This document shows positions 17,130 to 44,815 of a stretch of 64,000 nucleotides of DNA, one piece after another. The position numbers and the translations under genes are program-made. The stretch comes from Amoebophrya sp. A120 (taxonomy: Eukaryota; Protista; Dinoflagellata), in the NCBI GenBank assembly GCA_905178155.1, contig CAJINV010000012.1, forward strand, positions 2,457,407 to 2,521,406. The letters run 5' to 3'. How positions within the stretch are numbered: the stretch's first letter is position 1; every line of letters starts with the position of its first letter. The notes under the pieces were generated by a model that searched no databases, was not told the origin of the DNA, and saw only the letters and a program-made list of their open reading frames with translations.

Positions 17130-17442
17130 TGGAGCACGAGATCGTGCAATGAATTTATTTCGTCGAGTCAAGTCAAGATTAATTTTCGCGTAAAAGTTTT
17201 GGCTTTCATGGCAAACAGTTACTTCGACAAGGTTCTCTTTCCGATAACAACAAATCGTGGACAACAACTTCAAGTGTGACAAGTTTTCAAATTGTGAGTT
17301 TCAAAGCAAGAAAGTCTCTACTACAACGACAGTTAAGCAAGTTTCTCCAATGATCTGTGAAGATGCGCATTTGAGACCATGATCTTCATGCTCATACCAA
17401 GTTTCATTTCTCTGCCACCACACATCTTCCTCCTCCTCTTCT

Positions 17443-20400
17443 TCACACCGACTGCGTCTTCGGTCTTTGCATCATCATCGGTCTCTCCTCATCTTCGTCG
17501 TCCGTATCTGACTCGTCGTGTTTGTCAACGATTCCCGCCGCACCTACCTCCTGTCGAATCACGTTGACGCCTGATGTTCCTTCCCCCGAAAGAACCGGAC
17601 TAATTTTCGCGTCCTTATTTCCGATCACTGCACCCAGCCGCTTTTCCCACTGCTTCATGAGGACGATCTGCAACCACTTGAGCGCTAGCACAATCAACAG
17701 GATTCCGAGGACGTAGATGCTGAAGACCTTCGCGTACTGAAGCTTCTGCTATAAGAGTGCACAACTCCCCCTCTCCCTCATTTGCCATGCAAAACCCCAT
17801 CAAATCCAGTCGCTGCCCTGTGGCTCTGTTTGCGTGACAAATTTCGAAAGCCCAAACAGTACTACAATCAATGTAAGTATACATAAAATTTGCCATGCAC
17901 AGGCCACAGGGTCGCTGGCGTTTGCATTGCTGTTTATGCAAGACAAATGAGGGCGAGGGGGAGTTGTGCACTGTCATATCTGCCCGAGCTCGATCCACGG
18001 CGTGGGCTGGGACCAGTGGATTATAACGCGCTCAGGTGTTACAATCTCAAACGTTCCAATAGAATATCGCAATTTGTGATGCAAGCGCGCATGATCCAGC
18101 TTACTCCACCCACAGGATTGCGCATGACAAGTTTTCGAGTCCCAAACCGCACTAGAATCATCTGGCGAAATTTGTCTTGCAGAAAGTGGAGCGCCCTGTG
18201 AGTCTGTCATGTTCATCACGCCATACAAAATCCAGATTCTATTGTAACGCTTCAGATTGTAACATCTGAGCAAGCCATATGGAGAGGTGATTTTTTCTGC
18301 TTCTTCAGATTCGTTTTTACCTGCTTTGTCGTGGCTGCAGTAGTAGATTTCGTTCTTGCTGTTCTAGCTTTGTTGGTTTTTTGCGCAAAGGAGGATTGTT
18401 TTTCCCCAGTCGCAGCTTCATCCGCAGTCGTGGGAGCAGCCGCTGGTGCAGCCTCCTGCTCGTTGTTTTCGTGGCTAACTTCGGCAACTTCCGTGGCTGG
18501 TTGCTCCACTTCCACGGCCGCTGCTTGGGATTCGGTCGCGGCTTCCGGCGCCTGAGGCACGACCTCCTCCTCGTAAACCTCCGTTGGAGCTTATGCAAGA
18601 GAAATTTATTTACAGTCCATGCACAAAAGGCATCACAAACTTCGGCTTTCTTCCAGTACGTACCAGCCGGCGCCATTGATTTGCAATGCGGAGGACACGA
18701 CAAAACCTGTCATGGTGGCAGACCATTTGCATTTCTACGTGTACTGTATGGTAAATTTCTCCTCGATAGCGTTGGAACTTCCTTTCCGTACGTGACATCC
18801 TCCGGGGTGGTGGGCACGTCCTTATGCAGTGCAAATACATCTAGTTCTGGGCTCTTCGGAAAGTTGTGACGCAAGTTGTCAGTGAACAATAAGAATACTG
18901 TGAGAAGTGTGTACATACACCGATAAGCATGACAGGTTTATTCTTCTTCACTCTGTGTTGCGAATTTCAAATGCAGACAGACACAGACTTCAGAGTCATG
19001 TCAGACTAGCATGACAAACCTCGCAACCTTCCAGAAGATGGCCCAGAAATGATATTCGCCGTGGATATTCTTCCAGGTATCCGTTTTTCAAATCCGACAA
19101 AACCTTCTCGCCGCTCCCCAAGTAGCTTCCCGTCTGCGCATTGACCTCCTTCTTCACCTCCACGATTAGTTGACTCGCCTTCCCAGTCGCTCGCGCCACA
19201 GTATGCATTGCAAATATGTCTGCGTCTGGAAACTTGTGATGCAAGTCAGTAAACAAAAGTGAACTGTAATGCGCAGCCGAGCATGACAAGTTTTTTCGTT
19301 CTTCTGTACTGCGTATTCCGCATGAGAGACTGCGTTTTTGCATGACGGGCGAGAGAGGCTGTTTGTGGCCACGCAATACAGAGTGCAGAGTCATGCCAGA
19401 CTAGCATGACAAGTCTTGCAATCTTCCAGACCCAGACATCATATTTGCGGTTGATACACAGCCGATTCTTGCAACCCGTTGTTGCAGAAAAAATCTCGCA
19501 TCCGAAACGCGCCCGCATTTATGGAACGGCATCAGGACCGAAATTGATGACAAAGTTGTAATGCATAAAATGCAATGCACAAGATCCCTGTCTTGCGAGG
19601 GTGGCAAGCGAGGCCGATTGTGAGGAGCCTGTTTGGGGTTCTTGATAACGGAGCTGCTCAAGTAGCATAACAAAAGATGCCCTCTTTCCCTAAACAGCAT
19701 CACAAATTGGATTTACATGAGGCTGAAATTTGTCATGCGCCGGTTTGAAACTGGGCTTCCAAGTCGTATCGATTTTATGCATGGCAAATCATTTCAAGAC
19801 CTATGTCGGAAATTTCGGTCCTGACGCGTCCATAGCATTCCGGTCCTCGTTCACGTTGGCGTAACTTGGGTACACAAACGTGGTCTTCAGCTTCACAATG
19901 CTCGGCACTTCCTCTTCTTCGTCCGACCAGGCGGGCTTCTCTTTCTTGTCGGTGGTTTTCTGAAAGAAGGAAGAGGAGGCCTCCTCCTTGCTTGTTGCAG
20001 CTTCTGCATCTTCTGCTGCTGGTGTAGCGACCTCCGACGTGGTGCTGGCCGGAGCTTCTTCCCCAGCCGAAGGACCTTCTCCACTTGGAGGTGGAGCAAC
20101 ATCGTCAGTACCGCCGATCGGAGCAGCCGTAGCGGCATCGTACACGTCCGAGAGGTCGGTTTCTGCAGCGCCGTCGTCCAGGTGCTTCACCGCCTCGCTG
20201 AACAAGCCGCACAACATGTCGTTGGCAAAATCGTGCTCCAGTGCTTGGTGGTACAGCAGTTCCCCTGCGGAGGCTCGGGTCCGGTTCAGCGCGTCTTCGG
20301 CCAGCACTGCCTCCCGCCCGGCGAACAGATTCAACTCCTGAAAATCGGTCCACAGGTCGGAGTAGGCTTCGTGCAGGCTGAGGCCCCTTTTGTGGAATTC

Positions 20401-23400
20401 GTCCGCGATTTCCTGCGCGCTTTGTCCCTTTTCCACGTACAGTTCCGGATCCTTCTATGCATTGCAAATATGTAGTCTGGGTCTGAAGGAAGGATGTGAA
20501 CCTGTGCTGCGCATGTCACAACACAGACAAATCTGTCATGCATAGGCAGAAAAAGATGCCCATTTCCTGTCACCTCCAAAGTGGGGGACTTGTCATGCGG
20601 ATTAAGCAATGCGGAAGCTTCTCGAACTCTGTGATGCTAGGGCTTCCATGACAGACATTCTGTTTTATGCAAAAACAGTATGGCAAAAATCTGCACTGCT
20701 CCAGACCACCCAGACATATTTGCATTTGATACCTTCACAGTTTCCACAATCTGCCCCATCGCGTTCTCGATCGAAATTTCGGCGGCGTCCTCGTCCTATC
20801 ATGTGCAAAAGTTTACTACATACTAGTACGTGTAGTTGCAGTTGTAGTAACTCTGGCAAGACAGATTATTTTTTTTTCAATTTCTATTTCAGCACCTGCA
20901 GCACAGCAAGTTCATTTATTTTTGGATGGGGGAAACATCAAGATTTTCAAGATATTCATCATATTAATATTTCAACATTTACAACTGCTATGCAACTCGT
21001 CACACTAGTAGCACGATCCACCTTTTGCTCTGCATACTGCCATTTTCTGCTGTTTCCTCTCTAGCGCCTCAGCGTGCGCGTTTCCACAAGAAAAGCATCT
21101 TTGCTTATGCATTGCAAAAGTATCGTACTAGTAGAAATCGCATGACAAATTTGCGTAGCATGACAAATGAAATTTGTAATGCAGATTTATCTTAGGAAGC
21201 AGATTTGTGTTGCATGATTGCAATTAGTGCGAGTGCGATACTTTTGCAAAGCATATTGCTTCATTTTGTTCAATTTCATTTTCTTCTGGAGAAACGACTG
21301 CTCGTCCGCCTCGATAAGCTCCTGTCTCGTTTTCGGACTGGCCATCTCGTACAGCATCTGCTGAATCTATGCAATACAAATTTCCCGCCGCACATGTACA
21401 AAATGCATCACAAATTTCACCAATTATTGGAGGATAACGCTTGTTATGCTAAACTAGGATCGGACGCAAGTTTTGTCATGCCGAGACTGCATGTGTAGTA
21501 CGTGTACGGCTACGGGAAATTTACTGTGGATAGCATCTTCCGGCTGTGTTCGGCCTCTTGAAGTACCGCAGCGTCGGATTTGGCGGCGGTGTCAGGAGTG
21601 AGCAAGTCGTAGCTTCGCTTCGCCATCTGCTGCAGCGCTTTCACCGCGCGCTCAGTCTGCTTCCGCATCTGGATAAACGATCCTGACCCTTCGAGCGACA
21701 TCCTCAACTTATCGCCGCCCTCACCCGCCTTGCCCTGACCCAGGTTGACCGGAAGCGCTTTCACAGCGGACACCATGGCGGCCCGCCGCTCGGCATCTGT
21801 TTGGAAGAGGAATTGCGATAATTTCGAACATTCTAGCTTCTAATACTTCTTGCACGACTTTTGCATAAAAAAGTGCGCGATGGTTCTCGTGCGCAGCTGC
21901 TTTTCAAATCTGCACAACTATCGACGACGACTTGTGCAAGAAGACTCCATAGTCCGGTCCTCGGAACAACTACATGAATCCTAATCCATTTTCTTAGACA
22001 TCAAGGGGGCTGCAGCTGCAACGAACGACCTCCAGCAGCATCGCTCCTGAAAAGAATTTATAATTATCAGCAAAAAATTTCTTCTATACGCTGCGCGTCC
22101 ACGGTTCTGCAGGCAACGATCTCTCCCTTCTCGTTGGCATATGAAGTGCAAATGAATCGTCTTCGTCTAAATGCATTACAAATTTCCTCAGCGTGAGAAA
22201 TAAAATTTGTAATGCTGATTTACCTCAAGATAAAGATTTGTAATGCATGATTGCAATACGAGTACGATACTTTTGCACAGGATATGGCAACCCGTTCGAC
22301 CAAGTTGAGATGTAAGTCAACCGCTATCAAAGTGAAAAAACCCCCCTCCCCCTATTGAAGCGGAAATTTCTGTTGCTGGATTTGTGTACACAAATCAGCG
22401 CTATAGTGCAGCGAGCGCTTGCAGGCATTTGCTGTGCCTGATTAGGTATGCAAAAGGCTAGCACTCAGGCATGACAGACAGCTCTGCAGTAGGCAAAAGC
22501 GCATTACAGATTGGCTGTGGAATGCGCCACACGGCTCCAGTTGCCTCATATACAAGACAGAGCTGATTTGTGGTCACAAATCAGCATCACAAATTTCATT
22601 GTGAGTATGGGGAGGGGGGCTTTTTCCTTACGATAACCGTGTCGAAGGTACGCTGGACGGTCTGCAACGCCTTCTTCCCAAGCTTCCGGAAGTTACTCAG
22701 CGTTCGCTCCGTGCTCTCTTGGTAGCGCTGTTTGATGGACAAATTCTAACGTGTACGTAGAAATCTGTCATGCTACTATAGACATCTGTTGCACTGCGTG
22801 TCATGCAAAATAGAGCGGCATAAAAATATGGACGCCTGTTCTTGCTCCGTGTCTACTTGTACTTTACCTGAATCGTCATGGTCATTTCACGGGCGATGGT
22901 CTGCGCCAGAAGTGGGTCGTTCAAGTTCAACGGCGTCCGAAGCATGAAGAAGGACAGTTCCGTCATGATCCGCGTTGCGTCAGCCGCACTCGCTGTGACC
23001 GCCCGGAGCATGCCCTGCACCATCTTGCGGCCCATCACCGCAACCTCGAGCAAGCGGTCGAACATGTTCACCCGGAGCTCCGGATCCACCAACGTCGGGT
23101 TCATGCGCTTGGTGAGCCCGAGTTCCTGGGCTTGCTTCGTGCGTTCAGCTGTTTTTTATGGGAAGTTGTATGTTTGTAAATACATTAGTACTCCTCTACT
23201 GCACTTCTCCACCTCCAACTCCAAGGTCATAAGCATGATCGTACTGAATGAAAAATGCCAGGACAAAGATTTCATTTCGAGAGAAGAAATAAGGAAAAGT
23301 AGTACTCAAAGTCGAATCCTGCCAATCCCAGAAGTCCGCTCGCTTCACATTTTGGAAATCGATCGCGTACATGCGCAGCGCGATGATCATTTCACGCATG

Positions 23401-26400
23401 CCAAATGTCTGGTGAAACAGCACCGCGCATCCTGAGCAAAAACGTCGCCGCCCCAGGGTTGTAACTAATGCCAATCTGCATGCTGAGAATGTTTCTCATG
23501 CGGAGACCCATGGGAAAGGGAAGCAGTTCCCGTTGGTGTTGTGCGATTTGTGATGCTCAAATCCAAATGGTGTGCTAGATCTGTGATGCTGCTGAACTAC
23601 CTAAAGAGGACGACACTACTAGGAGAAACTTTTCATGCGAAACAACCAAAGCTGGCCGATTTGTCTAGCAGATTTCCCATCGACTGTGGTGTGGAGACGT
23701 TTTTACTCAGGATACCGCGTCCGTGTCCAGAATGTCGGTGACCAGATCCCGTTGGTAAGTCATCAGCTGCGTGGCCAAGTTCGCCAACTACTATGCACTG
23801 CAAATATATGTTGTGTCTCGGTCTGGTGGAGAGACGCAGCGAATTTGTGCTCTTGCTCCTGAGTCATGCATGGCACAGCGATCATGTAGTTTTGTACGGC
23901 GCCTAGTACGCATCACAAATTTTTCGCTTGGTGTTGCGAGTTCTAATACTGTGTTTCATCGCGGCGTGACCTGACAACCTGAGTGCTTTCACAGCATGAC
24001 AAAGAAAATACCCAATCGTGATTACGCTTCACAAATGAATCCTCGCTGCATCACAAATCAAGAGGACCCAGATCGATATAATTATTTGCAATGCATAAAT
24101 ACAGGCGATTGCTGATGTCGTGCCAGATGTTGTCGACTTCGGAGGAAACACCGTCCCAGCTGGTTCTGATCAGGGTCGGAAACTCAACTTGCAGAAATTC
24201 CTCGTACTTGCCCAGCTCGACCTGGAACTCAGATTTCCTGTAGAAATTTTGTTTTTTTACGGATACAGCTCTGCAATGCATGACCAGCATGATAGACAGA
24301 ATCAACTTGCATGTTGCGCATGACAATAAAGCTACAGCAGACAAAAGCGACGTAGTATTAAAATCGAATTCGTACATGTGATCCATGACTTGGTCCTTGG
24401 TGTCCCAAATGTAGGAGTATGCAATACAAAATTCCCGCACATGTACAAAATGCAAGACAAACTTCGCTCACTTTGAATGTCAAACTTGTCATGCTGGCTA
24501 GGATTGAAGGCGCATTTTGTCAACACGCAGAGACAGCATTTGTACGCGTACGGAAAATTTACTGTGGATAAGGAGACCGTGCTGTCCAGTTCCGTTGTGT
24601 AGTTTCCCACGTTGTGCTTCAGATTCACGTGCGTCTCGTGCACGCGGCGCAGGGCTCGCTCCACGTTGTTCTCTGTAATGTCTTCGTAGATCAGCTCTTT
24701 GCAGGTCTCCAACTCCGAAATCGACTTCTGGATCGCGTCGCGCATCCGGCCGCGGGACTCCTTCAGAAACTCGGCGCGGAGGACCATGGACCGCAGGTTC
24801 ACTACGAGCTGGTCAAAGATTTTCTATCAAATGCAAAAGTGTCTGGGTCTGGAAGAGTCATGCTATTTTTGCATGACAGAGAAGGTCTGGCATGGAAGCT
24901 CTAGCATCGCAGGTTTCGAGAAGCTTCCGCAATGCCAAATCCGCATGACAAATCCCCCAGTTTGGTGACAGAAACTGGGCAGCCTTTGCTACCTATGCAT
25001 GAGAGATTTTTCATCTGTGTTCTGAAATGCGCATCACAAGTTACATCCTTCCAGACCCAGACACTTTTGCATTTGATATTTTCCGCACCCGGTCGATAAA
25101 CGCGACGGTCTCGGTATGCAAGAAAAAAACCGTGTAAGTGTAAATCTGTGATGGAAAAAATGCAAAACAGTTACGATTGTCATGCTGGAAGTGCGTGATA
25201 GACGTGTTTCGTACGTCTTTTCACGTACTATCCGCGCATGACAGGTTTTTTCTGTAACGCAAAACGAGTTTGTGATGCTGCTCTTCCTACAAAGTTACAC
25301 TTACACAGTTTTTGTCCTGGATATTCGGGGACGACCTGCCACAGCTTTCCCTCACCTTTCAGGTACAGCTCCTCCAGCCACTTCAGCAGCAAACGCTGCA
25401 TCAGAGAAGTCGTATGCAATGCAAAGATGTCTGGGTCTGGGAGATTCTGAGACTTGTCAGGCACGTCTTGCGTGAGCCATGATGTCTGTGATGCATGCCC
25501 TAGCCTCACAGATGTTCTGAGGGCTTCTTGATGCCTCGTCCGCATGACAAATGCCATCTCCGCGTAGCAAAAATTAGATTGCTTTTGCTGCTCATGCAAT
25601 ACAGCTTTTTTTTGACATCCCAATGCAGCATCACAATTTGCATTCTTCAAGACCCAGCCATATTTGCAATTGGTAAGTCTTCTGGACCAGCAGGGGGACG
25701 ACGGACTCGGTCACTTGCTGGGTTGAGAGGTAAAAGAGTATATAAAGGTCCACATAGTGCAATCATGAGTTTGTCATGCGCTGCAAGGATGCTGGTAAAA
25801 AAAGTTGTAGTGCAAAAGCCCTATTATACCAGGTATCGCGCAGGCGTCTCGACGTGAAAGTAGTCGCTGTCAAGGTACGCAACGACGCCTTGGAACATGT
25901 ATCACAGAGAAATAAAGTGCTAGTAGAGGTAAAAGTAGCTCGAAACTTGTTCTTGTCTCGCTATCCGGCAAGAAGAACGCATCAAAATGTTCCTGCTTTG
26001 AATTGCGTAGCACAACATGCCTCGTCGCGACAGTCGGTTTCGCAGGAGGAACCAATGCAAAAATCCAGTGCAGTTCGTGGACAAGAATTATCGCTATCTT
26101 CAAAACTGAACACTCTTTATTTCTGGATAACATTTCGTGCACTTTTCTGATGAGGTCCTCTCCGAAGATTTTCGCCAACTCCGCCATGCCCGAGTTCAAG
26201 GCCGCGTAGATTTGTATGAAATGCAAAAGCACCTTTCTCGTATGAATTGCAGTCATGCATGATAAATCAAACTTTCGTACCTTACCCAGCATGACAAATT
26301 GCATTTTTCTTCTTAGCGAAATTTGTAAATGCAATTCATACTATTACTAGGAGTACGATGCTTTTGCGATTCATAATTTCTTTTGCCCGCTGATTGTAGG

Positions 26401-28800
26401 CCAGAATCGAGGCGGTGACCTGTTTGTCCATATCGTTCTCCTTCACTTCCTCGACGGTCTTTACCAGTTCTTGAAACTTCGCCTTCTCCAGGAAGTGCGC
26501 GCCTTGCAGAACCTGGTGTAGAACAGTGCTCTTGTAGTTTATTCATCTCGAGGACGTGCACGTGACGTGCGTCAACAAGTGCAGAAATTTTTGGTACTCA
26601 TTTTGATTTTATGCTATAGTACAACTGCAACGAAAAAAAAAGCTGTTTCGATCTTCATTGATGTACTTATAGAATGAACAAGAAGCTTTTAACAACTTCT
26701 ATACCGTGAGAACGTTCTGCGCATTTTCGCGCAGTTTCTCCCACCGTTCCGCGGGCTGTCCCTCCGATATCAAACAAAAAAAAGTTCGTCGCGATCACTC
26801 ATGCGCATTTTTGCAATACAAAACTGGCTGTCATGCGTAAAAATGCACGACAGCCAAGCTTCGTAGGGGATTTTCCTAGTGTTTCTGCAATACAAGGAAA
26901 ACTTGCGATGCTAAAAAAACTTGTAATGCAAAACCTGCAAGTTAGTGACTGTGACAAACTTTCTTCTTTCCATATCCGAGCCCTTCAGCGTAATCTGCAC
27001 CAGCTTCGCTTCAATTTCCAGCAGATTGTCCGTGTAGGTTTTGAAGGACCGCAGCTCGCCCCGGCAGTCCTGTTCCGCATCGTCCGTGCGGCGCTTCGTG
27101 TAGTCGATCCGCTCCATCAGCTCCTGTATGCATGGCAAATGTGTCTGGGTCTGAGAGATTGCGAGATTTGTCATGCTTGTCTGGCATGACTGAAGAGTTT
27201 GTGATGCGTGTCCAAGAAGAGAGCCTTTCGCTTGGAATGCAAAACGCAGTTTGTTTTTCATGCGGAAAGCGCAACACTAAGCCGCGCAGATATTTCTCAT
27301 GCTTGGCTGTGCATTACAGAGAATCAACTATTCACAACACAGCATTACAAGTTTCCAGACTCAGACATATTTGCAATGCATATCCTGCAGTTTCTGGTGA
27401 ATCTCCCCGGCCGCGTCGATCTGGTAGTCCGCAAACCGCACCATGGCCCGCGACTTGGCGATGTCACGCCGCGAGTAAACGGCCACGGAAAAGAAGTCTC
27501 GGGTGATCCCCTTCAACTCGGTGCGCAGGATCCGCTTCGTGGAGAGCATACCCTTCAACATCTCATGCATCGGCAAGCTGTACTCATTGTAGACCTCGTT
27601 GCGCTGCTATGCATTGCAAAAGTATTAACATCTTGCTCGTAGTGGTAGTGCTACTTGCATAGATTGCATCACAGGAGATCTTTCTTTCGGAAAATCACCA
27701 GTACAAACTTTTTCTCCCAATGCAGCTAGTACATCTTCTACCAACATGATATTAGTATTACTTTTGCAATTCCTACGTGCCACGCGGAGGCGATCTGCCA
27801 CTTCTCCCAGGCGACCAGCTTTTCGATGGGGGAATACGGCGGGTAGGGAAACCGAAACCAGTACTCGATCTCGTAGTTGTATGGAGAGAAAAAAGTTTGT
27901 CACAGTCACTAACTTGCAGGTTTTGCAATACAAATTTTCTCAGCACCACAAACTTTCCTTGTATTGCAGAAACACTAGGGAAATCCCTAATGAAGTTTGG
28001 CTGTGATGCACTCTTACGCATGACAAACAATTTTGTATTGCAAAAATACGCATGAGTGATCGTGACAAACTTTTTTTCTTTGATAAGTTGCGCTGGCGCT
28101 GCAAGTGCGTGTCCTGCCACATGATCTTTTATCCTGAGTAAAAACGTGCCCCCCCCAGAGTTGTTATGCAAATGCGCAAAGACAGGTAATGCGCAGCTTC
28201 ACGGGAGGCATTACCAATCGCGTTTTTGGAATTTGTAATGCTGTAAACAGGATGAGAAAATGGCTCTATCGTGCGGCTTCCCTTACCAACCAGCACTACA
28301 CTGCAGAGGAAAACTTGTCATGCGCAGCTCCCAACTTGGAGATTTCTTTGTGTTGCTAGTTTCCCAACTTGACTATGGGGTCGGGACGTTTTTGCTTGGG
28401 ATATCTTTACCGAGTGAATCATGGCGTTGTGGGCGGAGTAGAGCTCGCGACTGATGATTTCTTGGATCATCAGAGCCCGAACGTGCATATGCATTGCAAA
28501 AGTCTTGTATCGTGCTAGAGCTAGTTGTAAAATTCTTGCATTACAAATTGAAATTGAAATTTCCTCTTCAGCATAAGAAATGGAGCTTGTTTTATTGTGA
28601 TGCGGATTTACCTGCAGAAAAAGATTTTTAATGCGTTGACTGCAATTACAACTACCACTACAAGCACGATACTCTTTTGCACAGGATAGTGCAGCTTCGA
28701 GTTCACGTAGTCCTGCATCTCGACGATAATGCGCGCGCGCTCGAGCATTTTGAGCTGGACGTGGACACGGATTTTCGCGGAAATTTTCTTCTCGACTTCC
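17443..28800 (-). CDS. Hypothetical multi-exon coding region (one long gene or several), helical/coiled-coil-like with A/E/T-rich spacers and a C-terminal hydrophobic segment
   Basis: GC-rich open exon fragments between 26 TIR elements and GT-AG introns (e.g. 19835-20455, 22868-23140, 24571-24824); C-terminal VFSIYVLGILLIVLALKWLQIVL. No family recognised; gene boundaries unresolved. Confidence 0.55.
17750..17978. mobile_element. TIR introner-like element (family C)
   Basis: TIRs; DR tctgc/tctgc. Confidence 0.9.
18022..18279. mobile_element. TIR introner-like element (J-related)
   Basis: GCTCAGRTGTTACAATCT inverted pair; DR tggat/tggag. Confidence 0.85.
18592..18768. mobile_element. TIR introner-like element (E-related, diverged)
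   Basis: TATGCAAGAGAAATTT..AAATTTCTCCTCGATA; flanks gagct/gcgtt. Confidence 0.75.
18823..19067. mobile_element. TIR introner-like element (family B, diverged)
   Basis: Degenerate TIRs, B-like body; flanks gtcct/ttctt. Confidence 0.75.
19202..19456. mobile_element. TIR introner-like element (family B)
   Basis: TIRs; DR cacag/cacag. Confidence 0.9.
19520..19834. mobile_element. TIR introner-like element (family F, opposite orientation to 9875 and 11706)
   Basis: TIRs; DR gcatt/gcatt; body is reverse-complementary to the other F copies. Confidence 0.9.
20456..20731. mobile_element. TIR introner-like element (family B)
   Basis: TIRs; DR ccttc/ccttc. Confidence 0.9.
21106..21255. mobile_element. 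TIR introner-like element (family A)
   Basis: TIRs; DR ttgct/ttgct. Confidence 0.9.
21368..21532. mobile_element. TIR introner-like element (family E)
   Basis: TIRs; DR gaatc/gcatc. Confidence 0.88.
22140..22284. mobile_element. TIR introner-like element (family A)
   Basis: TIRs; DR tggca/tggca. Confidence 0.88.
22325..22635. mobile_element. TIR introner-like element (family H, AAAAA-CCCCCCTCCCC)
   Basis: TIRs; DR accgc/accgt. Confidence 0.88.
22728..22867 (-). other. Canonical GT-AG intron containing introner-like motifs
   Basis: CAG|GTAAAG...AAACAG|CGC joins TMTIQ to RYQESTERT in frame. Confidence 0.7.
23428..23714. mobile_element. TIR introner-like element (family D)
   Basis: CATCCTGAGCAAAAACGTC..GACGTTTTTACTCAGGATA; DR ccgcg/ccgcg. 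Confidence 0.9.
23792..24097. mobile_element. TIR introner-like element (family B, diverged)
   Basis: TATGCACTGCAAATA..TATTTGCAATGCATA; DR actac/aatac. Confidence 0.82.
24249..24360. mobile_element. Degenerate element with eroded TIRs
   Basis: DR aaatt/aaatc, GCATGAC motifs; removal gives YEFDFYRKSEF; also reads through in frame. Confidence 0.55.
24418..24570. mobile_element. TIR introner-like element (family E)
   Basis: TIRs; DR aggag/aggag. Confidence 0.9.
24825..25078. mobile_element. TIR introner-like element (family B)
   Basis: Perfect ~30-bp TIRs; DR ttttc/ttttc. Confidence 0.92.
25115..25323. mobile_element. TIR introner-like element (family I, GTGTAAGTGTAA)
   Basis: TIRs; DR ctcgg/ttcgg; near copy at 58701-58910. 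Confidence 0.9.
25413..25675. mobile_element. TIR introner-like element (family B)
   Basis: TIRs; DR agtcg/agtct. Confidence 0.85.
25900..26129. mobile_element. TIR introner-like element (singleton, motif-poor)
   Basis: TATCACAGAGAAATAAAGTG..CACTCTTTATTTCTGGATA; DR acatg/acatt. Confidence 0.7.
26215..26375. mobile_element. TIR introner-like element (family A)
   Basis: TIRs; DR atttg/atttc. Confidence 0.85.
26768..26974. mobile_element. TIR introner-like element (family G)
   Basis: TIRs; DR tccga/tccga. Confidence 0.9.
27127..27382. mobile_element. TIR introner-like element (family B)
   Basis: TIRs; DR tcctg/tcctg. Confidence 0.9.
27608..27775. mobile_element. TIR introner-like element (family A, diverged)
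   Basis: TTGCAAAAGTA inverted pair; flanks gctgc/cgtgc. Confidence 0.75.
27880..28085. mobile_element. TIR introner-like element (family G, inverted copy of 26768-26974)
   Basis: TIRs; DR agttg/agttg; reverse complement aligns along the whole length with 26768-26974. Confidence 0.92.
28130..28403. mobile_element. TIR introner-like element (family D)
   Basis: TIRs; DR tcttt/tcttt. Confidence 0.9.
28488..28688. mobile_element. TIR introner-like element (family A)
   Basis: TIRs; DR gtgca/gtgca. Confidence 0.9.
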
Positions 28801-29096
28801 GTGCGGGCCGCATCGTCGGCGAAAATCTCGTGGAGCTTTGTCTGTGATGATGAAAAACAAAAAAATTGAAGGTTTTCATCTACCTAACAGCTGTTTTTTG
28901 TTCTTGCGCAAGAAACCAATCAGTTCGTGTCTTCTCATCTCATGACGCGGATAAATGTTCTTTACTGTACAAGTACGTGTTTTAGTTTTTTGTTTTAGTT
29001 TTTTTTTAAAAAACGTGCGCTTGTTCTTGTAGTTTCGCGATCGATTGACATCCGAATCCGAGTTTTTGTGCTGGTGTCACTATCAAGTAAGTGATT

Positions 29097-31860
29097 CTAT
29101 ACTAAGCCCTGCTGCAATTTGCCGACAATTTTCGGAATCGAGAGCATCTTGTCCTCGTTCCCTGGTCGCGCGTCGTATTTCTCGTCGTCGGCCTGGGAAA
29201 ATTTCCGCTGAAAAAAGTTGACCTCGATGGTTGCCACCCTTGTGGAACGCAAAATGTCCTTCGCGGCGGCAATGTGGGCGTGGATGGTAGGCAGCATCAA
29301 TCCCGGAATCGCGTCGACCAGGGGGTGGAGGTTCGCGGCCTTGCCTTCCTCGTGTTTCGTCGGATTGTACAGCTGCGCTTCGACCCGGCCCGCGCGGACG
29401 GCCATGACGGTGGAGGTCTGGGCGAGATCCATGAACTGTTGTACTACGGGGAAAAGTTCAAGAATAAGAATTTTTGCAAAAATAGCTAGGCGGGTTCGAT
29501 GAGGGCGCAGAAGCAGATGGCGAAATGGACTCCGCGCTGCAGGTCGGGGAGGTACATCTCCAGCTGGAAAACCGCGGAGGGTGGCTCGTGAGGGTGGCCC
29601 AGAAGCATTGCGCGCGCCCGCTTTCGGATCGGTCTGAAGGAGACACTCCTTACAAAAATGCGGCAGCCTCAAAACTCGCGCCCCTTTTTGCTTATAGGTC
29701 GTGATTAGCATGAAAATAGGCAATTACTAATCGGTGCTGAGTTTTCAAGAATGGACAGGGTGGGGGGTTCCGAAAAGGGCCCGGAAACGGCCAATTGGCG
29801 CCCCCCCTCTGAGCCCCCAAATCGGCACCATAGCATGGGTGCTGAGTTTTCAAGAATAGAAAGATCGACCCCCCTGAAGACCCCCCCGCGAACGCCCCCG
29901 CGGAGGCCCCCCCCTTGAGATTTTTTGGCCCTCCGAAAGGGCCACAGAATTGGGCTCCGGCTCCCTTTGGGTTCCCCGGCCAACAAAAGCATCGGGCGAG
30001 GGCGGGGCCGGGGCGGTGGCCGGGCCGTAGAAGCGCCGGGCCGCAGCCTGGGGGTGGGGCCGCAGCCGGCCTTTTGTATTTTCCCCTTTTTCTTCCGTGT
30101 TTGGCATATTTCTTGTACCTACTACAAAAAAACTACAACAACACGACCCAGCACCTACCGTCGCTGGGCCCCCTAGTCAATTTTTGCTCGGATTCTTATT
30201 CTTGAACTTTTCCCCTTAGTATGTTGGGAGGTTACTTCATCCAGCTCAATGAAGTACTGCTGGCACTTCACAAGCGCGAGCTTGTTCATCTTGACCAGGT
30301 CGGTGCTCATGTCGCTCATGCACTGGTTGGCCTGCGCAAACTCTTCCACGCGGAGACACTTCTATGCATTGCAAAAGTATCGTACTCGTATAAATGCAAT
30401 ACGCATTTCCTCAGCATAAGAGCTGGGATTTGTCATGCTGTTTTACCTTAGGGACATCAACGTTTCTTGTCATGCATAATTGCAGTTAGTACGAGTACGA
30501 TACTTTTGCTCAGGATAACTTCTGGTTGTAGCTGATCCAATCCATCTTCTCGAATTTCATGCGCATCGCCATGGACCTGATTTTTTACATACATCAGGGA
30601 TGAATTACGTAAGTGGAAGTAAGGATTGCACGAGGTGGAGAAAATGTTGTCTAACGTAAACTTACTTTCCTCTATAATTCTAATTTTTCCTATGAACGAG
30701 GAAAAATGATGCAATTGCAATAAAATCAAACTGTTTACTGAAATCCCCGATAGGCCGCGTCTGTTGGCTGTTGCAGGTGCTGGCTCGCGTGCATCCAGCG
30801 GTTGCGTTCTATCACGATGTGGTGCAGCTTAAACGCTTCCTGCGCCCCAATCATGTCCAGTTGCAGGGGCGTCATTTCCGGCGCTCCGTGTTCCTCGATC
30901 TCCTCCTGCAGCTGCTTTTCGGCTATGCATTGCAAACATGTCTGGGACTGAAACTTGAACTTGTCATGCGAACACTGAATCACGCATAGGTCTGTGTTGT
31001 ATGATTGCCAAAAGTTGTAGCTGTCCAATTTTGACCAAGTCAAGAGAGAGTTTCTCATGCAGGAGAGGCATGATTGAGAGAACAAGATCTCTCGTCAGGG
31101 TATTTGTCCTCATGCGGCGGGGCCGTGCATTCCCTACCCCATGGGTCACGGTCATGGAAAACCTGCATGAAAAGGCTTGCAATCTTCCAGTGACCCAGCA
31201 GACATATTTGCAGTGGATATCGGCCTGCGCTTTGTCGCCCGACAGGTTCACGGCGTCCTCGCCGGGCAGCACCTCGGCGTGCTCGGGATCCTTCAGGACA
31301 AAGACCGGCTCCGGGTTGGCATCGTCGTTTGCCGGCGCCGTGGCGTCAGCATTCCAGAACGGAAGTCGTTTGACATCCTCCAGGGTCTCCGGAAGCGGGA
31401 CCACTGGCATCGGCAGGACGTTGGTCGACAAATCTTCAAAAATGTGCGCGGCATTCTCGTCCTGCGAAGGTTGTACAACTTCTGGAGCACCTTCTTTCGA
31501 AGTCGAGAGATCTTCGAGCGGTGGCGCTTCTGATTCAGGCTCTTCGTAGTTCCCGTCCGGAATAGGATCTCCTTCTGGCACGATGGGCTTGCTCGTCTTT
31601 ACCGAAGCCACGACGCCGGTCGTGATTGATGGGCAAGAAAGGTCGTTGCAGCCGAACAGAAGCAAGGACATCATCCCGCTAGCTGCTGTGTTTCTCATCT
31701 TGTTTCTGGTTGTCATGCTGGTGCTAGAAGCCGTTCTCGTTCTGTTTGTCGTGCTGCTTTTGCTAGAAAATAAGGCTGCACTTCTAGAAGACGAACTGCT
31801 GCTCGAGGCGGTTGTACTAGTTTGGGAGAAATAAACCATTTTCTCCACTGCTAGTACCAA
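29097..31860 (-). CDS. Hypothetical multi-exon protein (S/T-rich N-terminus, hydrophobic stretch, acidic Pro-rich region)
   Basis: Open exons 31220-31860, 30735-30923, ~30236-30362 and 29097-29435; no family recognised. Confidence 0.55.
29445..30218. mobile_element. GC-rich non-autonomous TIR element (MITE-like), TA-flanked, distinct from the introner families
   Basis: GGGGAAAAGTTCAAGAATAAGAAT...CTAGG at left and its reverse complement at right (~43 bp imperfect TIR); TA on both sides; internal duplication GGTGCTGAGTTTTCAAGAAT. Confidence 0.8.
30363..30517. mobile_element. TIR introner-like element (family A)
   Basis: TIRs; DR acttc/acttc. Confidence 0.9.
30924..31219. mobile_element. TIR introner-like element (family B)
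   Basis: TIRs; DR tcggc/tcggc. Confidence 0.88.
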
Positions 31861-33193
31861 CGAATCGCGGATGATGAGTTATTGTTCCAAAGAACAAGAA
31901 GAACTCCGTGGTCGTCGTGCGTGGCACTGTACTAAGTCCTTGACTTCGACGCTTTATCGCTTGCTTCACGAAGATCTTCGAAAAGTTCGTAGTTTGCTCG
32001 GCTTCAGAAGATGCTGTTGCTGACAAGAGGTCGCTGCCGCCATGCTCCTCTTGTTGAGCTTGAATTTACGTAGGTTTTTTTCAGAGGACGCTAACGCTGT
32101 GTGATGTCAAAAGCCCCCACGAGGACTACACAACAGCAGCAACTCGTCCCTGCGTTCCTTCTGCTAGGTTTTTGAAAAAAATTCCTGCGTTTGGTAGTTT
32201 CGGTATCGAAAGATTAAGGTTTCTCTTTCTTTTTCTTAGTTAGTACCACGACTGCTCGTGTAGTAAGTACTTGTTTATTCAGGCTGAAGCTTATCGTGAT
32301 ACGAAACGAAATTATCGACGAAGAGGACGAGGGTCGTGTTGTGTTCTATTTGCAAACTACCTTCAGATTCGCGATGATGCGCTCGTCGCTCTTTTTACCT
32401 TTCCTTACAACCTTTTCGCTCCTCTTGCAATAAATAATCCCGGAGGACGAGATCATCTTCCGCACAAGAGCTGCCTTGTCGTCGATCATACAAGCTGCTC
32501 TGCGACGATACGAAAGCGAAACGCGTTTTACGATGTATTACAGGGGCTGTCGCTGGTGTAACAGCAAGTGCAAGAGATGCAATCATAAATAATTTGAATT
32601 CGTCCTGCTAGCTGTACGTGCTATCGCTATGTTGAGTCCTCCTCGACCACGTTTCTAGCGCCTTGCTTCTACGAATAGTACAGACGACCCTGGTGACCCA
32701 ACGCTGTTACTGTTTAACTGACGTCCCCTCTTGTAATGAAAGCCAATAACGTACGAATTAGAAAGCGTATCCAGGAGCAAGAGCATCTACACGCTGCACG
32801 AACAGACTCACTTTCTCTATGTAGGCGCGCATCCGTAGAGCAGCACTTGTATTGCTGACTGTGCAACAGGTTATTTGCGTGAAAAAAAATCTTCTTCCAC
32901 TTAGTTCGAGATCTTCTCATCTCGACCCTGGTACTCCCTTCCACACGTGCGTATCTTCTGCACGTGAAGGTGGGAGGACATCGCTTTGACTATTGAGACT
33001 ACTTACAACACGGCAAGACGACCACACGTTCATCTCGACGTCGACTGTGTGTGTTTATTTTACTATTCAGGTTCTTTTATTTCTCATTGGAGGATTTTTA
33101 TCCGATGATGTTGGTACAAGTTAGTTCAGGCTCTTCAGGCTGAAGTAGTGAATCCACCACCGACGTCAGCAGCTGCAAGAAAACAACTCGCTC

Positions 33194-36100
33194 CTAGTTT
33201 CCAAATAACAGCGTCGTCTGTATCCAGGCGGAGAGCGGCTCCCGTCGGTTTTTCAAGTTCGTGGAAGTGACCCGGTACTCGTGCAGCAACGCGTACAACT
33301 ATGAGAGTGCACAACTCCCCCTTCCCCTCATTTGCATGGCGTGAAGTGCAATACAAACATCAGTACAGCTACAGCTACAGGTGGACCCTGTGCATGACAA
33401 GTTCATCATGCGCCGAGTGTTGAAGCACTGTTTGGAATTTCGGCATTTTTTATCATGCATGCAGTGCTACGTGGGAGCAACTGGATTTGGTTTTTTGCAT
33501 GACAAATAAGGGGGAGGGGGGGTAGCCGTGCACTCTCGTAACAACAAACCCGCGCGGATGTTTTTCGTCCGGACGAGTTCCACGATCGACTCGAGCGATT
33601 CGGTCTATGGGACTCTCAAACGTTACATGCTCAACTGCTACATGGATTTGTCATGCAAAACTACCTTAAGCCGCCAGATAATCAAGCTGCTTCGCATGAC
33701 AAATTTCCGAAGGACTAAATAGCATCTAAATCTGTGCCAAATCTGTGATGCGAGGGCAGCAAGCTTGCCCCCTTGGCTGTTGCTCTTCTTGCATTGCAAA
33801 TTCATGTAACTACAGCTGAGAATGTAACTACAGATGAGAACGCCATATGGTTACCGATTGCCGTCCCTCCATCCCCTTCGCTTCACCCGACATGGGGCCC
33901 TTTATCATTTTCCCCGCGTCCAGCTGGCATTTCGCTGTGGACACCCGGAGTTCCTGCACGCCGACTTGGGCGCAAACAATCCACCTGTGTAGTTTGATGA
34001 GTCTTTTGTTCAGATCAGAGTGACAATACGAATTAAAATATCTGATAGACGAGGTGTGATGTCTCGAGGGCAGGCTGTAGTTGTGATGCTCTCTAGTATC
34101 GTCACCGGGGAGGGATGAGGCATGCTGTGTAAGTACAACGCAGATGAAAGCTTTAGGAGGCTTGTATGCAAATCCAAATCCAACTACAAGTGAAATTCAG
34201 CAGGACAACATATTGGAAAAACGAAGTTTATACCATAGCAGCACCCACGCCATCTGGTTGTCTATGTTCGTTCCCCCCAAGTGGGTTAGAAAGGAATATG
34301 GCAGCACCACCACCCGCTTTGTCTTTTCGGGGAAAAATGCGTCGACGGGCTCCTTTGGAGCGGCCTAGAATTTGTATAAATTCAAATGTATAGTTGCAAG
34401 CTAGTTTATTTGTGAGACAATCGCGTTAATAGCATAAGCTGCATGGGTGCGCAATACAAAAAAAAATGCACTTCTTACCTCCACCGCTGGGGCGGGGTTA
34501 TCGGTGTCTTCCTCCTCGTCTGGCTCTTCCTTCTCTTTCACTTCGGGCACAAAGGACCTCTATCGCACGAAAAAAACGACTTTTCATTTTCACTGTACAC
34601 TTGTATTGCACAGCATGGACCATGGAGGTATTTGTTCTCTTGTTGTACATGCAAGGCACGACTTCTGCATTTCTGCAAGCCGGTTTTATTTCCACCCTTG
34701 GGCGACACGCATCGCAAATGTACTTTTGTTGTCGTGTAGAACTACATCAAATTTGCGAAGTAGGTGCAAACGTTGCAAATTCGTTACAGTGAAGCCCTTT
34801 TCATTTTTTCCTGCGATAATCTCGGCTTCAGCGCTATTCTTATGGCGTCGAGTGTCTCCGGTGTCGTTTTTTTCGAAGAGAAAGCGCAGGAAACTACTTC
34901 ACAGGGAGACTCGCCAAGCGGACCTGATCATGATTCGTTCATGTACGTGGTTCAATTTGATCATTCGTTGGTCGTGGTGGAGACTTTATCACTTGTTAAT
35001 ACAGACCTGAATCATGCTACGTCCTGCTATGCGAGATGAAAGGAAGCAAACGCAGCTGCTGCGTGCACAATTTTTTTCTTCACAAGTTGTACACTACAAG
35101 AAGTCTCATCATCAATCTGTAGTAATAAACAACTTCTCTTCCTCTACCTTCAGAGAAAGCCGGGTCCGCTGCTGTTCTCCCGTCTGAATACCCCTCTTCC
35201 CGCGGTATACACCGAAAGTCCTCCCCCATTTCGCAGGTTTTGCGGGCCGATCGGACCGACAGCCACTCCTTCGATAAGTATGGCAGTGCACTACAACTCC
35301 CCCTCCCTCTCATTTGTCATGCAAAATCCCAAATCCAGTCGCTGTCGCTTCCACCCTGTGGCGCTGTTTGCATGGAAAATTTCGAAAGCCAGAACAGTAC
35401 TACAGTAGGCGCATAAAAAATTTCTCATGCACACGCTCCAGGGTCGCTGGCGTTTGTATTGCCGTTCATGCTATAAGTACAAATGAGGGGGATAGGGAGT
35501 AGTTGTGCACTGTCATAATAGGTCCGCCTTCTCGATGAACGGCAAAAACGCCATGGCCTGGACGTGGGAGGCAAAAAAGGCCTCAACCGCATCATAGGAC
35601 TGCCCGAGAAAATCGCCGCCATACCTTTATTTTTGTTTCGTCGTAAAATTTTTGCACCATCAAAACCCGAAATTGTACTAACGAACGGTCATGCACATGT
35701 TCTCGATTTGCGTGGCAGGCTCTATGATGCGCACGCACGACATCATCGTGCATGATATAAGGAACAACAGCACTCACCTTTATTCGTGAAGACCGCAGGC
35801 AAGCCTGCTATGCATAGTAATAGATCTACCTGCTCGACTGCAGTTCCATCACCCGAACCAGTTCCTCACTCGTCCTTGGGGCGAGCGCGTCCCCGGATTC
35901 TTCCAAAACAAGCTCGCACGTATCCATCAAGAAAAGACTGTCGGTGTAAGAAGAAGTAGCTCTGTGATCATGCGCCGCAACATGCAAGATGATTGCGTTT
36001 GTGTTTGTCATGCTGCAGGTCATGATGCATGCGTTGTTGTAGCGTCATAATCCAAGCTGCGCGTCTTCACGTACAATTAGAATTACCTGGGTGTGAAGAC

Positions 36101-37886
36101 GAGCTATTAATTGCTGTGATGATGCAAGCCAAATGTGTTCTATCTTCCAAACAAGTTCAGCACACCTGCAATCTTTTTTTCTTGGATAGCACTTGTCCAG
36201 CGAGCATTCTGTCGCGGACCAGAAGGACATGTCAACTCCCACATGAGGCTCGACGAAGGACCGCCTGGTTGTTACAAGATTGAGGCTCATCGAACTATAG
36301 CTAAAGAAATCCGGAGGGTTTTCATGCAGGTCATGCAGCATGACAAACTGCACATCAAGAACTACCTTCTCTTCCCCGGAGACTGGCTTGCGCTTTTGCC
36401 ACCGCCACCGCCGCCCTCCGCGTCCTCATGCTGGCCCCGGATCAGTGTGAGTGACCTCGAGCCCCACTTGGCGTACACATTTTGCCGAAACTCCTTTTGT
36501 CTTTCCTTGAAGCCTATGCATCACAAAACCGACCGTACTCGTATAAATGCATTACAAATTTCCTCAGCATGAGAAATAAAATTTGCAATGCGGATTTGCC
36601 TCAAGAAAAATATTTGTAATGCAAGACTTGCATTTATACGAATACGATACTTTTGTACAGGATAAAAGCTTCCAGCTCCTCATCTTCCTCTCTTTCAAAC
36701 GACGGCTTGAGTTGAGAGATATGATGCTCGAAATACCTGGTTTGGGTTTTGATCGCACCAGTCCCTTTGACTTTTGCTTTTGCATGCGCACACTGCATAC
36801 GAAACTCCTTCTGTCATGCCCTGCTCATGAATGCTGCATCACGACCGCAGATAATAAAAGTATCAATTTCATATATACCTCAGCACCGCGCACAGCTTCT
36901 GCGCTTGCTTGTGGTCGTTTGCACGGAAAAATTTTCGAAAATTCAAACTCTGAATCGCATCGGTGAGTGGTTTATCCAATGCAAAAATATCGCACTCGTG
37001 CTAATTCTTGCGAATATGCACTACAAATTTGATTTGTCATGCTGCGCTAATTTATCGTAATGCAAATTGAATTTGTACTAGTACGATGCTTTCGCAATGC
37101 ATATGGTTCGGGAAGGATGCAGAAGAACGCCCCTGCTAATAGGTAGACACACTGCTTTTCTGTTAGCGTCACCTGTTGTGATGAAATGTTGCTGTTTATT
37201 GCGGATTCAACATGATCCAAAGGAGGTGTCATGATACAGTACGACCGATGTACTTACTACAGTAGTAGTTCCATGACCGCATTTTTTCTTCTTGTAGTTC
37301 TTTCTGCAAATCAATCTAGGCGCCTGTGCAAGAAGTAGTCCAACTTCTGTAGAACTCCCAATCGTGTTCTTGTACCTTCCCCGACTTCCCCGCTCGCAGG
37401 ATTGGCACCGGGTCGGGGAAATGAGTGGGAAACTGCCTGGCCCATTCTTGTATCTTTGGCAAGATGTTGGTGTAAAATTTTTCGTGCAGTTTCGGGTCGA
37501 TTTCGGACATATCCTGTGCAAAAGTATCGTACTCGTAGTTATTGCATTGATGCATTACAAATCTGCTTGGTTTCTCAAGGTAAATCAGCATCACAAATTC
37601 AATTTGTAATGTTGGGGGAATTTGTAATGCGATTTACACGAGTACGATGCTTTTGCATTGCATAGGACACCTGCTGCAGCAACGCCGGGATCTGCTCAAA
37701 TTGGTCCGCTTTTTTCAGCGATCCCGCTACCTCGGCCAAGAGGACGAGCGTGTCGCGCAGCGCTTCGGGCGTTTTCAACGTGGCTTTCTCCAAGCCCTCG
37801 CGAATGGTCTTCCATACCTCCTTCTTTCTGCCCCCGAACTTGAAATCGATCACGTTCGGATTGGGGGGCGGCTCGCCACGAGGCAT
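33194..37886 (-). CDS. Divergent poly(ADP-ribose) glycohydrolase (PARG)-like protein, multi-exon
   Basis: FYTNILPKIQEWARQFPTHFPDPVPILRAGKSG and VTLTEKQCVYLLAGAFFCILP resemble the PARG accessory helices; C-terminal IVELVRTKNIRAGLLYALLHEY resembles the PARG terminal helix. Recognised by eye; internal junctions partly unresolved. Confidence 0.65.
33300..33540. mobile_element. TIR introner-like element (family C)
   Basis: TIRs; DR acaac/acaac. Confidence 0.9.
33606..33847. mobile_element. TIR introner-like element (family J, opposite orientation to 3862-4557)
   Basis: TATGGGACTCTCAAACGTTAC..TGAGAACGCCATA; flanks cggtc/tggtt. Confidence 0.82.
35279..35517. mobile_element. TIR introner-like element (family C)
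   Basis: TIRs; DR ataag/atagg. Confidence 0.88.
36515..36665. mobile_element. TIR introner-like element (family A)
   Basis: CGTACTCGTATAAATGCA inverted pair; flanks aagcc/aagct; right end +/-1 nt. Confidence 0.82.
36973..37103. mobile_element. TIR introner-like element (family A, short)
   Basis: TIRs; DR tggtt/tggtt. Confidence 0.88.
37510..37664. mobile_element. TIR introner-like element (family A)
   Basis: TIRs; DR ggaca/ggaca. Confidence 0.9.
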
Positions 37887-44110: not shown

Positions 44111-44815
44111 NNNNNNNNNNNNNNNNNNNNNNNNNNNNNNNNNNNNNNNNNNNNNNNNNNNNNNNNNNNNNNNNNNNNNNNNNNNNNNNNNNNNNNNNNN
44201 NNNNNNNNNNNNNNNNNNNNNNNNNNNNNNNNNNNNNNNNNNNNNNNNNNNNNNNNNNNNNNNNNNNNNNNNNNNNNNNNNNNNNNNNNNNNNNNNNNNN
44301 NNNNNNNNNNNNNNNNNNNNNNNNNNNNNNNNNNNNNNNNNNNNNNNNNNNNNNNNNNNNNNNNNNNNNNNNNNNNNNNNNNNNNNNNNNNNNNNNNNNN
44401 NNNNNNNNNNNNNNNNNNNNNNNNNNNNNNNNNNNNNNNNNNNNNNNNNNNNNNNNNNNNNNNNNNNNNNNNNNNNNNNNNNNNNNNNNNNNNNNNNNNN
44501 NNNNNNNNNNNNNNNNNNNNNNNNNNNNNNNNNNNNNNNNNNNNNNNNNNNNNNNNNNNNNNNNNNNNNNNNNNNNNNNNNNNNNNNNNNNNNNNNNNNN
44601 NNNNNNNNNNNNNNNNNNNNNNNNNNNNNNNNNNNNNNNNNNNNNNNNNNNNNNNNNNNNNNNNNNNNNNNNNNNNNNNNNNNNNNNNNNNNNNNNNNNN
44701 NNNNNNNNNNNNNNNNNNNNNNNNNNNNNNNNNNNNNNNNNNNNNNNNNNNNNNNNNNNNNNNNNNNNNNNNNNNNNNNNNNNNNNNNNNNNNNNNNNNN
44801 NNNNNNNNNNNNNNN
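44111..44815. other. Assembly gap
   Basis: Run of N. Confidence 0.99.

Follow-up and report, generated by a model that had tools for sequence, protein, structure and literature searches.

The locus described here raises the question of how an insertion that lies forwards at one place of a gene and backwards at another can be missing from the messenger RNA (mRNA) in both cases, and of what is read when it is removed. The window, meaning the whole stretch of 64,000 nucleotides (nt) that was analysed, comes from the marine parasitic dinoflagellate Amoebophrya sp. A120 (contig CAJINV010000012.1, positions 2,457,407 to 2,521,406) and carries many short transposon-like elements, two of which, called A and B, are inverted relative to each other within a single minus-strand gene. 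From pairs of this kind, the first-pass annotation concluded that removal is strand-symmetric, depending on the symmetric stem of the terminal inverted repeats (TIRs) or on double-stranded DNA and not on polar splice signals. The elements are missing exactly from the mRNA whichever way they lie in the gene, so that part of the claim stands. Against the idea that polar signals are absent, the cut itself follows the polarity of the transcript, and sequence constraint on the repeat is stronger in its 5' copy than in its 3' copy. The features on which the argument starts are the following:

26768..26974: element A, 207 nt, with TAT-N7-AAA ... ATA TIRs; RNA joint 26762/26975, 212 nt skipped, that is, 207+5.
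26763..26767 and 26975-26979: left and right copies of the 5-bp target duplication of A, identical to each other.
26764..26975, minus strand: intron A as it would lie in the +1/-4 register (see below), carried over from other elements.
27880..28085: element B, 206 nt, of A's family and inverted relative to A; RNA joint 27874/28086, 211 nt skipped, that is, 206+5.
27875..27879 and 28086-28090: left and right copies of the 5-bp target duplication of B, identical to each other.
27876..28086, minus strand: intron B as it would lie in the +1/-4 register, its own cut being ambiguous over 6 positions.
12060..12265: third member of this family in the window by alignment, in A's orientation and in a different gene.
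17446..31839, minus strand: host gene P0001, 1874 amino acids (aa), CAD7965302.1, GSA120T00007282001, with 28 elements; spliced contig 17092-32163.
27127..27382: element between A and B, removed as its length plus 5 nt (L+5) and inverted relative to its same-gene relative 19202-19456.
20456..20731: element inverted relative to the same-gene 24825-25078, both junctions being present in P0001 and 24825 also having an RNA joint.

As reported in the first-pass annotation, A and B are reverse complements in one minus-strand coding region: A (26768-26974) matches B (28085-27880) over 207 nt with 87.0% identity (E 7e-66, self-blastn), with a spacing of 905 nt. The global alignment to the reverse complement has 180 identities, 26 mismatches and 1 gap, and the direct-match score is only 10. 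With 30 nt taken off each end, the cores score 187 in reverse versus 28 direct, the shuffled-core maximum being 26, and the opposite orientation is thus real for the element body, beyond the terminal repeats alone. A single 6300-nt spliced contig joins across both elements, P0001 contains both junctions, and an exon between them is a 100% match to an Amoebophrya sp. A120 protein, as is the neighbouring gene. A cross-validated codon model placed 70/70 called window junctions on the minus strand (4 uncalled, margin 5), as were 5/6 of the longest open reading frames (ORFs) after element removal. Consequently, the orientation of an element in the window is its orientation relative to transcription, and the inverted pairs between genes are also opposite in that sense. 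In P0001 and the neighbouring P0002 together, six opposite-orientation and four same-orientation element pairs lie above the similarity threshold.

The curated set comprises 75 window elements, named hereafter by their first coordinate where convenient. They have the features of miniature inverted-repeat transposable elements (MITEs), as they are short, multicopy and non-coding, with TIRs and a target duplication of fixed length. The terminal repeat is TAT + 7 nt + AAA, some families having the TAT without the A run, and the depth of DNA-type contigs at element ends is far above single copy. The 5-nt duplication is perfect in 46/75, a share biased upward by a first detector that favoured 5-nt matches, and any other length from 2 to 9 occurs in at most 5/75. 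There are 11 families (49 elements, with 26 unassigned), 9/11 of them present in both orientations. Families F, J and E, said earlier to occur both ways, do so with reverse cores well above direct ones: for F, 204 vs 32 (9875/19520) and 177 vs 42 (11706/19520); for J, 92 vs 35 (3862/33606); and for E, 80 vs 20 (6708/21368), 94 vs 21 (6708/24418) and 137 vs 26 (49201/60144). For family D, the pair originally named (6371/28130) is weak when compared directly, 43 vs 18, and the inversion holds via 6990-7269 (blastn 70%, E 3e-19; one family, opposite sign). Two further elements with perfect 5-bp duplications, 2579-2825 and 46236-46547, were found later and are excluded from the counts; 2579-2825 has a short duplication inside its right repeat. 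The family-J element at 3862-4557 reaches 696 nt through a nested 460-nt insert between 17-nt direct repeats (starts 4038 and 4498), and the frame is restored on removing the entire unit as L+5, so length seems to be tolerated as far as the frame can tell.

The RNA evidence consists of contigs from four presumed RNA-type runs (2 samples, 1 study), which were accepted as complementary DNA (cDNA) because their contigs also lack GT-AG introns. In 4/4 runs, A and B are both absent, as element + 5 nt, from one spliced contig. Among the joints listed (15 of 17), 12 lie at elements and 3 are GT-AG introns without repeats, and the element joints skip L+5 in 12/12 cases across 4/4 runs. Six more elements (17744-19835) are exactly accounted for by contig-length bookkeeping, and for 8 further elements the 590-nt remainder equals the best-scoring set of three GT-AG introns, one of 233 solutions. 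In addition, ORFs of 1100-1200 aa are restored only by L+2, L+5 and L+8 removal, and the annotated proteins contain the element junctions in 28/28 cases for P0001 and 8/8 for P0002. Depth is 0 inside 23792, 25900 and 26768 in 4/4 RNA-type runs, the skipped form being the dominant contig. An element-containing contig in one of these runs has a depth of 3.7 vs 117, reflecting pre-mRNA or DNA carry-over, and the raw RNA reads of two runs (80 and 10 on the window) fall at element ends only, with almost none on exons. At 24825-25078, about 50 raw RNA reads of run X9 join the family's ends to an unrelated flank, representing an unspliced copy that lies at another locus or belongs to another strain.

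Meanwhile, DNA-type contigs (depth 41-45) cross at least 6 whole elements with their flanks, unbroken and at single-copy depth. The assembly may derive from that same run, rare variants are lost from contigs, and the run's joint table is so swamped by repeat joints that it is uninformative on spliced junctions in DNA. The whole elements in these contigs, and the lack of GT-AG introns as well as elements in the RNA-type ones, tell against the recognition of double-stranded DNA that had been suggested. The elements are removed in both orientations and without a GT-AG requirement, very probably at the RNA level.

Where the two copies of a duplication differ, the mRNA reveals which copy was retained, and the register of the cut can then be placed. 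The sole register common to the 12 RNA joints is +1/-4, with cuts lying 1 nt ahead of the 5' TAT and 4 nt beyond the 3' ATA (N-TAT...ATA-NNNN in transcript sense), and it also fits 28/28 P0001 junctions and 8/8 P0002 junctions. The features that bear on it are:

23792..24097: element with a mismatched duplication, giving the upper bound, at most 1 nt before the 5' TAT.
25115..25323: element with a mismatched duplication, giving the lower bound, no fewer than 1 nt ahead of the 5' TAT.
27604..27776, minus strand: intron around element 27608-27775, with an unambiguous GT-AG junction at exactly +1/-4.
33197..37886, minus strand: neighbouring gene P0002, 576 aa, CAD7965305.1, PF20811, with 8 elements in both orientations.
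36515-36664 and 33606-33847: elements of P0002, the first excluding the mirror register and the second excluding register 0.

The mirror register (+4/-1) is excluded by 18592, 20797, 21368, 23792, 27608 and 36515 and by a stop codon at 4603, that is, in 7/7 informative cases (p=0.008 were it set by element orientation at random). Elements 18823, 25115, 27608 and 33606 rule out register 0. The test covers 36515 of the same-family, opposite-orientation pair 3386/36515 and all other informative elements except 38988, 45830 and 56071. Even elements with merely 3/5 matching duplication letters are skipped in the same register. A single transcript-polar +1/-4 register, compatible with every informative junction, is therefore well supported. 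The cut of A is ambiguous over 6 equivalent positions because its duplication is perfect, and for both A and B we infer the +1/-4 cut by extension from the other elements. At 27608-27775, the intronic duplication letters are unlike the exonic ones at +1 and -1 (both G), and this GT-AG intron, with the 5' repeat changed to TAG, is possibly an intermediate between two intron classes.

Further copies were obtained by one scan with the element-end motif, which returned 118 stretches (116 loci, 380 kb) of metagenome contigs having no overlap with window exons and best matches of 71-92% identity to window elements. Loci L001-L116 are crowded with the same element families (397 detections in 380 kb), pointing to the same or a close lineage in the wild. 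Filtering took the 397 raw detections to 359 unique and 331 strand-called ones (15 uncalled, 12 discordant, 1 at an edge), and then to 319 copies with at least 4/5 duplication letters matching. Strand was called from exon codon usage alone, the case for splicing at these loci resting on frame restoration instead of RNA, and one family was over-sampled by the search motif. The detector recovered 64/75 curated window elements with 1 hit in the shuffled window; its extra hits at 11426-11748 and 46176-46547 were mis-paired ends and were left out. In place of the genome-wide orientation count proposed in the first-pass annotation, the 75 window elements and the 319 copies were counted: families with at least 4 members occur in both orientations in 13/13 cases, with 1894 same vs 1838 opposite family links (heterogeneity p=0.12), and two families are nominally biased, 32:17 and 6:19 (uncorrected).

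Regarding the conserved letters, numbered in the +1/-4 register and in transcript sense, the window has U+2, A+3 and A-7 in 75/75 elements, A-5 in 71/75 and U-6 in 73/75, so repeat positions 1-2 changed 0 times at the 5' end versus 6 at the 3' end. This asymmetry was taken as a hypothesis from the window and then tested on the 319 independent copies, where 6 changes at the 5' end stand against 22 at the 3' end (p=0.004), the bias having one direction whichever strand the gene is on (4 vs 9 and 2 vs 13). Within families, A+3 is changed in 0/317 and U-6 in 9/310 (p=0.002), no other of 24 positions reaching p<0.05 (uncorrected). The internal AAA/TTT control is symmetric, 19/949 vs 22/928 (p=0.64). 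Strand-biased mutation was rejected because the sense-strand letters of the two positions are opposite and the A/T runs further in show no asymmetry, and pairing alone is insufficient, as the 3' partners change at about 3%, which is the background rate. Sequence constraint is hence stronger on the 5' copy of the repeat than on its 3' counterpart. The invariance of A-7 in the window is weakened by 3 changes in the independent copies. It is still the best-conserved 3' letter, with 3 changes vs 15 and 13 of 394 (p=0.004), and its conservation is suggestive only.

Canonical ends are rare: GT/GC..AG in any register was found in 3/75 window elements and in the working register in 2/75, while GT-AG in 394 copies numbers 9 vs 11.0 expected. 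A drift of the elements towards GT-AG, prompted by 27608, 23792 and 1542, was rejected on 394-406 copies. Both orientations are removed and no cryptic GT-AG sites appear, so neither of the two outcomes that the first-pass annotation held to be fatal to its view, one orientation being retained or each using its own cryptic canonical sites, was seen. The canonical donors of the gene start with GTA in 7/7 cases (3 from RNA, 4 inferred). Compared with U2-type introns, the elements thus lack the GT(GC)-AG termini and share the conserved donor letters, U at +2 and A at +3.

Folding predicts strong hairpins for both introns and in either orientation (z -7.7 and -6.0). Near their ends the arms pair imperfectly, with position 4 paired in 51% and position 7 in 37%, and the lowest-energy predicted fold of B leaves the terminal TAT unpaired. 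A test for selection on an RNA stem gave no enrichment of G.U over A.C mismatches (225 vs 204, p=0.33), and the arm duplex has -21.1 vs -20.7 kcal/mol. The symmetric TIR stem invoked earlier holds as regards the symmetry of the repeat, which would make orientation irrelevant; its pairing is a prediction and may be dispensable for removal.

Non-canonical introns and introners of A120 have been treated by Farhat et al. 2021 (PMC7789003) and Gozashti et al. 2025 (PMC12130899). As described in the accessible text of the former, A120 introner elements have TAT + 7 nt + AAA, 3-5 nt direct repeats, a length of about 240 nt, hairpins and RNA-supported removal. Organism, repeat motif, direct repeats and RNA-supported non-GT-AG removal are all shared with the window elements, which are members of that published class, with no difference in kind. 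The same text gives U2, U4, U5, U6 and nearly all spliceosomal proteins in A120 with U1 undetected, no transposase found, 'no clear splicing signature' and border positions that are 'unknown'; more than 60% of Amoebophrya A25/A120 introns are without GT-AG (PMC7789003). Its commonest A120 direct repeat, the four nt upstream of the 5' end, partly foreshadows the +1/-4 register. What is new relative to these introners is the splicing of both orientations, the one +1/-4 register, the polar U+2/A+3 constraint and the acceptance of any target. In the text of PMC7789003, 'orientation' concerns genes, element orientation being unmentioned there, and a literature search in which subscription journals, theses and figures were largely outside the scope found no statement of orientation independence or of a fixed register for Amoebophrya. 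Fig. 3 and Figs. S19-S25 of PMC7789003, outside that search, may show part of the register and orientation result.

We consider it somewhat probable that the transposon-like introns of A120 are cut from pre-mRNA by a spliceosome of divergent type, which keeps to one register set by the polarity of the transcript, with the inverted repeat giving the same cue both ways; for the spliceosome's involvement, the hairpin's role and the branch, this is what we infer. A non-autonomous DNA transposon (MITE) would insert with a 5-bp staggered cut in random orientation, and its repeat, read forwards, would serve as a relaxed donor N-UAU(G/C) matching +2..+4 of the gene's canonical donors. The hairpin between the repeats may bring the ends together, replacing the U1 bridge reported missing in A120. 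The 3' cut would be measured from the repeat, 4 nt past it and possibly from a branch A at -7, and would not be located by AG. The duplication would let the +1/-4 cut restore the original exon exactly, making any target and either orientation harmless, and orientation would be irrelevant because the terminal repeat is symmetric and offers the same cue both ways. A bolder version, put forward tentatively, sees in the A120 repeat a two-way splice cassette for a U1-less spliceosome, which would act forwards as a donor N-UA and backwards as a source of the branch A at -7, the 3' cut following after 6 nt with no AG involved.

Several points weigh against this proposal. There is no sign of selection for G+1 or AG in the 394 copies (AG 37 vs 38.5 expected, with GT-AG at the level given above), duplication letters have changed without an overall drift to GT-AG, and strict GT..CAG introns are kept in the same gene, as would be expected if each kind had its own pathway. 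For a branch A, a distance of 7 nt to the cut would be unusually short, and the conservation of A-7 has p=0.17 in independent family members alone and p=0.15 vs its partner U+4. Support for the register comes from three genes, all on one strand, and about 12 informative copies, which include no same-family opposite-orientation pair, A and B themselves being unplaceable. Transcripts guided the annotation that gave P0001 and P0002, so these proteins and the runs may go back to some of the same RNA, and a codon-usage test of the exonic duplication copy gave no signal (upstream better in 24/50, t2-t4). Table S4 of PMC7789003 speaks for a link to the spliceosome, as the top non-canonical A120 motifs are NT-NN in 9/9; the top A25 motifs start with TT in 9/9, so U+2 may be common to the two strains, which differ in repeats (TTA in A25) and offsets. 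That table may nevertheless reflect an aligner preference for T at +2, and 8/9 of its A120 motifs have A at -2, as the mirror register would give.

The main rival, which we regard as possible though doubtful, is a dedicated non-spliceosomal endonuclease-ligase that binds the terminal hairpin, makes the staggered +1/-4 cut and releases a circle, as proposed for euglenids. It would account for the full indifference to G+1 and AG beside strict GT-AG introns of the same gene and for the strong predicted hairpins in both orientations, and the design in Euglena is alike. Euglenid nonconventional introns have a MITE-like origin, inverted repeats unequally offset from the cuts and slidable direct repeats, and they coexist with GT-AG introns (PMC12501133, PMC11282704). 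They differ in a CAG/CTG motif further from the cuts and an unrelated lineage, and circular products have been reported for them, the word 'orientation' being absent from the accessible text (PMC12501133). The euglenid CAG/CTG terminal code was not found here, the ends being TAT/ATA at +2/-5. Moreover, changes accumulate at background level in the outermost 3' partners (-5, -6) and not at +2/+3, which indicates sequence reading rather than pairing. The conserved letters are also those of the canonical donor, a GT-AG intron with this very register is found among the elements, signs of selection for transcript-strand pairing are slight by both measures given above, and B's terminal TAT is unpaired in its predicted fold.

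Fully strand-symmetric removal, in which nothing but the stem is read and the cut may lie at any point of the duplication or follow the element's own orientation, is improbable. The unbiased orientation overall agrees with it, and the 46/75 window junctions with perfect duplications conceal their cut; nevertheless, one register fits all informative junctions, with the mirror excluded in 7/7 and register 0 by four elements, and the substitution pattern is polar relative to transcription. DNA excision in the transcribed nuclei, as for the internal eliminated sequences of ciliates, is very unlikely: the transposon-like ends and duplications would suit it, and the DNA and RNA runs may be of different life stages, with rare variants dropped from contigs, but DNA-type contigs run unbroken through whole elements, contigs without elements are also without GT-AG introns, an RNA-type run holds an element-containing contig, and the register is polar to transcription. 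A hairpin plus a direct repeat is the setting in which reverse transcriptase skips, and all the RNA evidence is cDNA contigs; that the joints are such skips is just as unlikely, since the skipped form is dominant with no depth inside three elements in 4/4 runs, no protein could result with 28 inserts that contain stops, P0002 aligns colinearly with a relative that was assembled independently (358 identities over 566 aligned residues), and elements with 3/5 matching letters are skipped in the same register.

Two-way introners reportedly occur in Aureococcus anophagefferens as well, a finding attributed to Huff et al. 2016 and known to us via Roy et al. only. In Polarella glacialis, the two-way introner-like elements are those of classes 2, 3, 6, 7, 8 and 10 (Roy et al., bioRxiv 10.1101/2020.10.14.339549). 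The likeness between these systems and A120 lies in transposons with TIRs and target-site duplications that make introns in either orientation. According to the accessible text of that preprint, GT/GC/GA and AG sites come there from the element or the duplication, with a restricted target and often one favoured orientation (bioRxiv 10.1101/2020.10.14.339549). In A120, by contrast, the letters of the target are unconstrained, AG and G+1 occur at chance frequency, and the two orientations are about equally common. Fritillaria borealis also has MITE-derived non-canonical introns, attributed there to the U2-type spliceosome, with preferred AG-AC/AG-AT ends and a conserved U1 (PMC11282704, PMC13326754, as far as accessible), unlike the A120 elements, which are without preferred end letters beyond U+2 and for which U1 is reported undetected (PMC7789003).

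Besides the elements, the host gene holds at 29439-30223 an intron of about 785 nt, GC-rich, internally repeated and unlike the TAT elements, with approximate borders; together with a 162-nt gap at 30576-30737, it makes up the 947 nt remaining in the contig-length accounting. A Pfam search returned no match for P0001 or for four of its exons, and a search for the product of the gene in which 3386 and 4603 lie gave no hit. At 5062-7743 on the minus strand, a 333-aa frame appears once 7 elements are removed, which we take to resemble Pumilio/PUF repeats and which may extend to 1286. A 356-aa frame without elements at 62933-64000, minus strand, matches the NAD-dependent epimerase and 3-beta-HSD families. 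The assembly gap (N run 44111-44815) is flanked at 42737-44100 and 44816-45111 by a degenerate GC-rich array (units of about 46-80 nt) and a 97-nt tandem repeat.

Neither the elements nor introners that work both ways are new as such; the rule, two-way, with any target, one polar register and U+2/A+3, is new. The single register and the polar constraint give exact predictions for the excised RNA's 5' end, its branch and its 3' end and for the point changes that would block splicing, so that the identity of the splicing machine becomes directly testable, and the register would permit re-annotation of the junctions of this genome. Seamless two-way removal explains the dense invasion of coding exons, with 28 elements in one gene. 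It would be a natural splicing that disregards G+1 as well as the AG at the 3' end, in transcripts from which GT-AG introns are removed too. If the two-way cassette is true, tens of thousands of transposon copies would work as perfect introns whatever their 5-bp target and whichever way they point, and the 'unprecedented variability' reported for splice sites would then be no more than target-duplication letters viewed through one fixed register.

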